From: Octopus vulgaris
Lineage: Eukaryota
Direction: 5' to 3'
Assembly: GCA_951406725.2 (NCBI GenBank)
Contig: OX597825.1
Location: 42,718,001 to 42,782,000 of the forward strand
Length of the DNA: 64,000 bases
The notes below the pieces were generated by a model. It did no database searches. It saw nothing but the letters and a program-made list of their open reading frames with translations, and was not told where the DNA came from. The position numbers and the translations under genes were made by a program. Shown here in pieces: positions 28,251-29,098 of the stretch (its first letter is position 1; each line of letters starts with the position of its first letter).

Positions 28251-29098
28251 TTAATCAATATAGGGTGGCAAAAAAAATTTTGTAGAATTCTTTTGCCACC
28301 AGCGGCCTAGTGGGAAAAAATTAAATAGTCATAGACCATTTTTAAGTTCAACATCAACAATCAAGGAACGGCCATAATAGGCCATTCACCCACTAGAAAT
28401 AACAGCCAAAGCTTCAACCGCAAATAAAAATTAATTCCGTAAACCAGGAGAAAATTTAAAAAACATTTACCCTGTAATTTCTTACAGGGTAAATGTTTTT
28501 TAAATTTTCTCCTGGTTTACGGAATTAATTTTTATTTGCGGTTGAAGCTTTGGCTGTTATTTCTAGTGGGTGAATGGCCTATTATGGCCGTTCCTTGATT
28601 GTTGATGTTGAACTTAAAAATGGTCTTTGACTATTTAATTTTTTCCCACTAGGCCGCTGGTGGCAAAAGAATTCTACAAAATTTTTTTTGCCACCCTATA
28701 TTGATTAATTATGAATTTTCTGGTTAATTCCGTAATGGAATCGACGGCTTATATTTATTTGCTGCCGATAAATTTGGCGCGAGTGCGACGATTTGAAAAT
28801 TTTAGGTCAGATATAACCTTGGCAAGGTCGGAAATGCCTCGTGAAAATATCTGTTCCGACTTGGGCTATTTCTTACTGAAGAATCTGAGGGCCTTTGGAA
28901 GATTGGCTTGATTTAATGTAATCAGGTTAGTTTACCATTAATCAGCAGATGAAACGGTATATCGTATAAGAAATTACAGGGTAAATGTTTTTTAAATTTT
29001 CTCCTGGTTTACGGAATTAATTTTTATTTGCGGTTGAAGCTTTGGCTGTTATTTCTAGTGGGTGAATGGCCTATTATGGCCGTTCCTTGATTGTTGAT
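28251..29098 (+). mobile_element. HHR-bearing non-coding retroelement: 227-bp inverted arm + ~1.25 monomers of 492 bp
   Basis: Palindrome 28251-28477/28482-28708 (one mismatch seen); direct repeat 28482.. = 28974.. (period 492); (TA)n on both sides. Confidence 0.85.
28868..28974 (+). ncRNA. Type I hammerhead ribozyme, fully canonical core
   Basis: Stem I atttctta/taagaaat (8 bp), CTGAAGA, stem II atctg/cagat with a long inner hairpin, GAAA, stem III acggtatatcgt, GTA cleavage after 28966. Confidence 0.9.

Follow-up and report, generated by a model that had tools for sequence, protein, structure and literature searches.

Does an inverted repeat that stops at the predicted cleavage site of a hammerhead ribozyme record cleavage of its RNA, and how did its two arms come to be joined? 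The question is raised by an element at 28251–29098 of the window, by which we mean the whole 64,000-nucleotide stretch of Octopus vulgaris DNA under analysis, eukaryotic DNA that is rich in AT microsatellites. The element lies against an (AT)12 tract (28227–28250) that we take as the insertion target, with no target-site duplication readable, and on the other side an (AT)n-rich flank (29099–29333) leads to an adjoining second hammerhead element. Its inverted arm (28251–28484, minus strand) covers unit positions +234 to +1, where +1 is the first base past the predicted cut. The direct arm (28482–29098, plus strand) runs from +8 to +492 and then from +1 to +132, i.e., 1.25 units with a period of 492 nt, and its last 125 nt (28974–29098, plus strand) directly repeat 28482–28606 as a pseudo-LTR-like terminal redundancy. 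The palindrome arms (28251–28477 and 28482–28708) pair at 226 of 227 positions, with the sole mismatch at 28332/28627, around a 4-nt loop at 28478–28481. The junction itself (28475–28484) reads TAA, the loop TTTC, and TTA, and the final three bases are common to both arms (3-nt microhomology). No ORF of note was present in the 492-nt unit or in the direct arm, and the unit had a fold z-score of -6.35. The motif TATTTCTA (29049–29058, plus strand, with further copies at 28557 and, on the minus strand, at 28402) is common to the focal element and three other inverted elements in the window, and it may be a protein-recognition signal. The palindrome was known from the assembled sequence alone, and the public data consulted were contigs. 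Matches to miRNA-type Rfam models at the locus were set aside, being merely the palindrome itself.

The plus-strand sequence at 28868–28974 is a complete type I hammerhead by motif and fold, and self-cleavage is predicted after 28966. A structural scan located an 8-bp helix I (28868–28875/28967–28974), the core CUGAAGA (28876–28882) and the core GAAA (28951–28954), a 5-bp helix II (28883–28887/28946–28950) around a 58-nt insert, a self-complementary helix III (28954–28965) of 3–5 bp that self-pairs over 12 nt, and the cut triplet GUA (28964–28966), all on the plus strand; the CUGANGA and GAAA cores, an NUH triplet, and three helices with helix I open were thus all found at 28868–28974. The window contained seven hammerhead-like starts, one of them of the grade of 28868–28974, compared with averages of 0.13 and 0 in 60 block-wise dinucleotide shuffles. 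The hammerhead had a fold z-score of -3.5, and its minimum-energy fold contained helices I and II, with helix III replaced by an alternative pairing; short folds that omit the 5' strand of helix I fail to reveal the ribozyme. The Rfam hammerhead models yielded no match to 28868–28974 at the gathering score or at E ≤ 10, likely because of the long helix II insert. Among the contig variants of the family, the fold accommodates G-U wobbles at 28875 and 28946, and some other changes break pairing (e.g., 28950 T>C, which leaves A-C). Core changes were absent from the 40 of 57 variant rows listed, a result that alone is not significant. At the dyad center of helix III (28959/28960) a paired AT>GC change occurred at identical depth, 14 contigs each in X4, and this paired change is consistent with selection on a dimeric ribozyme. 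Self-complementary helix III sequences have been described for Penelope-type hammerheads that are thought to act as dimers (available sections of PMC4209133).

The inverted arm was identical to the sequence following the predicted cut at 132 of 132 nt (to 29098), with 0 nt of match upstream of 28967. The sequence-only reading of this DNA had placed the cut after 28966 and had described 28470–28484 as complementary down to the first post-cut base; its coordinates were all correct, 28470–28484 being the reverse complement of 28967–28981, and the bases for the fold-back that it proposed, TTA pairing with TAA across the 4-nt TTTC loop, are present at 28475–28484. Its further claim that the arm ends exactly at +1 holds in that no match extends beyond +1, but bases 28482–28484 belong to both arms, so the true end lies anywhere from +1 to +4. 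An end within +1 to +4 has a chance of 4 in 492 unit positions (0.8%), and the chance given a 3-bp terminal fold-back is 1 in the 52 unit positions that permit one (about 2%). One of the three hammerhead-bearing inverted elements in the window has its arm end at the cut, and the single-window chance is a few percent.

The strand that carries the loop bears on how the arms were joined. A cDNA that ran off its template at +1 would end in TTTCTTA-3', and the top strand alone carries this end. The antisense part of the top strand is 234 nt long and its continuation is 614 nt, which is 390 nt beyond what the antisense part could template, so a second, longer cDNA is required. The cDNA of the long arm itself is the bottom strand, which is without +1 to +7 in antisense. 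The loop therefore lies on the other strand than the one that fold-back of the long cDNA gives, and simple fold-back of the main cDNA was rejected. The long arm also continues across the ribozyme at 28966/7, a copy that was left uncut. Both outer ends of the focal element look like 3' ends of the family: CCCT or CCTT stands about 8–17 nt before an AT tract at eight of nine tabulated element ends of the window, including both focal ones, and at the ninth CCTT precedes an AT-rich flank that is not a repeat. The outer end of the inverted arm coincides with a recurrent family end at +232 to +235, and the ends differ by about 90–105 nt in three elements of the window. In the sections available to us, PMC11167929 describes a purified Penelope-type protein, predicted to be dimeric, that nicks the two strands and extends both, with synthesis beginning at two internal sites of the RNA. 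From the strand test, the end motifs, and the two-strand, two-site priming of this protein we infer two cDNAs, which is a better reading than one self-priming cDNA. The self-priming proposed in the sequence-only reading keeps the type I hammerhead motif, the arm end at the predicted cut, and 2 of 11 contig joints on the same base (see below) in its favor, and the strand test excludes that one cDNA copied itself.

A series of steps that would produce this structure begins with a tandem transcript cut at the upstream hammerhead while the next one stays uncut, giving an RNA that extends from +1 past a second, intact ribozyme. Both target strands would be nicked and primed, the long cDNA starting at +132 (bottom strand) and the short cDNA at +234 (top strand), and the arm at 28251–28484 may be read as this short cDNA, a first strand whose priming took place at the left flank. 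On reaching +1, the short cDNA would end in TTA-3' and pair with TAA at +8 to +10. The TTA may do so on the long cDNA, two identical 3' ends priming each other around a 4 × 4 mismatch, or the short cDNA may fold back on itself first and then anneal to the long cDNA; the 3-bp junction hairpin is predicted not to be stable unaided. We weight mutual priming and short-cDNA fold-back about equally, and the focal locus alone cannot separate them. Fill-in would then yield a head-to-head palindrome with unequal arms. Among the 14 window ORFs scanned for an autonomous partner there was no GIY-YIG match, and an ORF combining RT and GIY-YIG was absent from the focal element and from these 14 ORFs. With some reserve, we favor a single insertion of a non-coding 492-nt hammerhead element into (AT)n, likely by a Penelope-type RT, from two cDNAs, of which the shorter likely ran off the cut 5' end and which were likely joined by three base pairs.

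Contigs from public runs were searched for joints within the family, and the independent support that they lend to ends at +1 is thin. Twenty-four runs were listed, all as contigs, and 19 of them, under three organism labels, held at least half of the sampled words. Four runs (4972, 15010, 837, and 25 contigs, the last being X5) were aligned to one unit length (28607–29098); X5 is RNA by guess only, X1 is possibly the same sample as the source, and an RNA run from a feces metagenome (word share of 0.06) was left out. The family is many-copy, with 837–15010 contigs per DNA run, and the runs guessed to be RNA had word shares of 0.54–0.65, with 25 contigs from X5; such contigs reveal neither ends nor circles. 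Twelve joints were listed, and setting aside one go-back joint at the edge of the reference left 11 skip joints with short sides of 20–26 letters. Two of these 11 landed at 28967, one in X1 from 28800 (1-nt overlap) and one in X2 from 28918 (3-nt overlap, TAA again); the X1 joint places the end at +1/+2, and the X2 joint, as at the focal locus, at +1 to +4. The uniform-null P for landing at 28967 was 0.0014–0.0034, a significance that this null overstates because the landing sites were clumped (3 of 11 at 29020–29022), and each of the two joints was seen in one contig with a short side of 23–25 letters at 88% likeness and was flagged as unreliable. Two of the 11 skip joints had their departure point at 28706/28707, no more than 2 nt from where the arm ends on its outer side (uniform-null P of 0.028). 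The landing sites at 29020–29022 (+54 to +56) fall in a polymorphic T-rich stretch and may reflect either the alignment or a further site of stopping. Tandem continuity within the family is evident from go-back joints that fall on the unit boundary, from which array length is not deducible. No strand-change joint occurred among the joints listed for the contigs of the four runs (12 of 77 rows, with 21 of 174 loose ends), which is not evidence of absence and leaves the palindrome known from one locus. Exact-pattern scans of metagenome contigs returned three loci that have just 20–21 nt in common with the element, and those of viral and prokaryote collections returned 0 matches.

Three other explanations of the junction were weighed against the two-cDNA reading. 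It is unlikely, but not negligibly so, that no cleavage was recorded and that the RT stalled at a folded, uncut ribozyme or was truncated at random, the ends then being united through a microhomology that arose by chance. Since helix I occupies +1 to +8, the start of the direct arm (+8 to +11) falls at the 3' foot of helix I, which is where RT would be expected to halt at a structure; the arm of the neighboring element ends at the 5' edge of its own helix I (29779), also a structure boundary, and 52 of the 492 unit positions permit a fold-back of this kind. The ribozyme of an anole element, the only system to have been reconstituted, was dispensable in vitro, and no RNA-seq reads ended at its cut according to the sections of PMC11167929 available to us; the dispensability is in line with stalling, and both observations count against the cleavage model. 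The three mapped ends (+1/+2, +1 to +4, and +1 to +4), none of which lies across the cut, are a better fit to the cut than to stalling, and the long arm crossed an intact ribozyme without a stop.

Considerably less probable is the course set out in the sequence-only reading, in which run-off at the cut end was followed by fold-back of the long cDNA, which then served as its own template, with the additional step that the loop was later flipped or that a free hairpin cDNA was trimmed and inserted. Such a cDNA could fold back exactly at +1 with 3 bp and a 4-nt loop, the arms are identical at 226 of 227 positions, and snap-back after full-length cDNA synthesis is documented for R2 proteins on ribozyme-made 5' ends (PMC11371274, sections available). 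The strand that carries the loop, however, does not suit the long cDNA, stability is not predicted for the hairpin, and the outer end of the inverted arm, lying at the recurrent family end (+232 to +235), is non-random. We give slightly less credence still to an artefact of assembly or library preparation, or to a small quasi-palindrome at which DNA synthesis later switched templates, although the near-identical arms of a palindrome known from an assembly and the very repetitive setting would suit such an origin. A folded-back read would mirror the flanks too, whereas here the arm stops where it meets its own (AT)n, and the DNA past that point is unrelated; the arms also differ by one mismatch, the head-to-head layout recurs in three other elements of the window, and an artefact has no reason to target +1. 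Taken across both models that need cleavage, the two-cDNA reading and long-cDNA fold-back, the junction probably records ribozyme cleavage, and we infer that cleavage after 28966 probably took place in vivo.

Two further head-to-head hammerhead elements in the window allow the generality of cleavage as a source of inverted arms to be judged. One, at 29334–30119, has ribozymes with C3 at 29565 (minus strand) and 29785 (plus strand) and a direct arm of about one 548-nt unit, tail end to tail end; the other, at 43430–44404, has a period of 551, ribozymes at 43682 (minus strand) and 44074 (plus strand), and a 36-nt terminal redundancy. Their hammerheads belong to families other than the focal one. 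In both, the inverted arm continues through the ribozyme; it ends 70 and 189 nt upstream of the cut, respectively, and the direct copy begins about 272 and 245 nt past the corresponding cut. Arm and direct copy are joined across non-palindromic spacers of 116–207 nt, as two-cDNA joining predicts. Because the arms of these neighbors pass the ribozyme and the focal long arm crosses an intact one, cleavage is unnecessary for inversion and at most fixes the end in some insertions. The proposal that cleavage followed by self-priming is a general mechanism for the inverted pLTRs of Penelope-like elements was rejected, being contradicted by two of the three hammerhead elements in the window.

Several other repeats were observed in the window. 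The sequence at 43121–43237 duplicates the left end of the 43430–44404 element, and 3155–3835 is a decayed relative (70–79%) of the 29334–30119 element, with a 140-nt direct repeat and a period of 541; it is preceded by a separate 100-nt direct repeat (2212–2311/3057–3156). A decayed palindrome (85%) at 47849–48105 has a 22-nt motif in common with the focal unit. Its center precedes the TATTTCTA motif by 76 nt, compared with 83 nt for +1 in the focal unit, so that this palindrome, too, may be centered on a cut site; the ribozyme of its family is absent from the window. Another palindrome (86%) lies at 19544–19703, and no cut site was matched to either of the two. At 20001–19925 (minus strand) stands a solitary type I hammerhead whose helix II is long and whose helix I has 7 bp, and at 48950–48989 (plus strand) a weak hammerhead candidate with a 4-bp helix I. 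Fragments of Helitron Rep and PIF1 helicase occur at 6897–9342 (plus strand) and 49044–50988 (minus strand), in regions that are about 96% identical and inverted in orientation. At 12690–15288, inserted in a very long (TA)n tract, is a non-LTR element that has endonuclease and RT domains, is interrupted by one in-frame stop near 14116, and bears an (AATC)n tail. A LINE-like remnant with an RVT_1 match lies at 59351–59815 (plus strand), and the sequence at 30283–30957 (minus strand), which had no Pfam match, is presumably another.

What hammerheads do in Penelope-like elements is described as unclear (PMC8557442) and the origin of the head-to-head inverted repeats of these elements as open (PMC8557442 and PMC3846280), in the sections of these papers at hand. 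The arm end at the cut likely records run-off of RT from a cleaved RNA end, and as genomic evidence that hammerheads act in living cells it would be rare. A large family with junctions clustered at the cut would show germ-line cleavage from DNA alone, and the strand of the 4-nt loop would serve as a simple count that separates fold-back from two-cDNA joining. More tentatively, and with doubts that outweigh our confidence, we suggest that the family hammerhead makes the 5' end of the reverse-transcribed RNA and that the self-complementary stretch from +1 to +10 allows mutual priming, which completes the insertion, between a pair of run-off cDNAs that a Penelope enzyme has synthesized on the two opposite strands of the target. 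If this is true, ribozyme cleavage in the germ line would have left its fossil record in thousands of genomic junctions, and hammerheads would gain a direct role in Penelope-type integration.

We regard the focal locus as a new representative of an element class already known, and cleavage is probably recorded in its junction. In L1 twin priming, reportedly described by Ostertag and Kazazian in 2001, two target-primed cDNAs on opposite strands are said to be joined by microhomology to leave an inverted 5' segment; the segments are said to abut there, whereas the focal segments share an overlap of 227 nt and extend to one and the same 5' end of the RNA. Animal non-LTR retrozymes are considered to be non-autonomous derivatives, proposed to be moved by Penelope-like elements (PMC7229834 and bioRxiv 10.64898/2026.07.22.740005, as far as these sources were available). 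Like them, the focal unit is non-coding and low in GC, has one type I hammerhead per unit, is present in many copies, and is tandem across the ribozyme. It differs in its length of 492 nt, compared with about 300 typical of retrozymes in these sources, in its helix II with a 58-nt insert, and in its inverted head, and it is known here from DNA, RNA circles being the feature of the retrozymes. With 1.25 direct units and one ribozyme, the focal locus falls short of the two ribozymes by which the available part of bioRxiv 10.64898/2026.07.22.740005 defines such elements.

As a rule, Penelope-like elements have inverted 5' copies, tails, and (TA)n targets (PMC8557442), and Terminons are treated in a review (PMC6431247). 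The focal element shares with Penelope-like insertions a partial tandem, a head-to-head inverted copy, a junction palindrome, two alternative 3' ends, a microsatellite target, and a hammerhead in the repeat (PMC8557442 and PMC3846280, available sections). The spacing of about 90–105 nt between element ends in the window resembles the optional tail of Penelope elements (PMC8557442), but the focal ends differ by 102 nt rather than the 30–40 given in the available sections of PMC8557442 and PMC3846280, and the element has no RT/GIY-YIG ORF. An inverted arm that stops at the ribozyme cut is absent from the descriptions of Penelope-like elements in those sections, and we found no report of Penelope-type junctions mapped to a hammerhead cut in the literature searched, which included few subscription papers. 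Self-priming as the source of Penelope junction palindromes had already been proposed in 2013, on an antisense template and, in the sections available, without invoking ribozymes (PMC3846280, in which the word "hammerhead" does not occur). The remaining comparison is with R2, whose ribozymes are treated in PMC11331408. In R2 PRINT insertions, the 3' end of a cDNA made from ribozyme-cut RNA primes synthesis on the cDNA and gives an antisense 5' junction (PMC11371274, sections available), and the focal locus likewise has antisense sequence at its 5' junction with a cDNA end at a predicted ribozyme cut. The R2 case involves another enzyme, an HDV-like ribozyme, and an engineered system in which it is the full-length cDNA that folds back (PMC11371274), and the strand of the focal loop argues against that course here.
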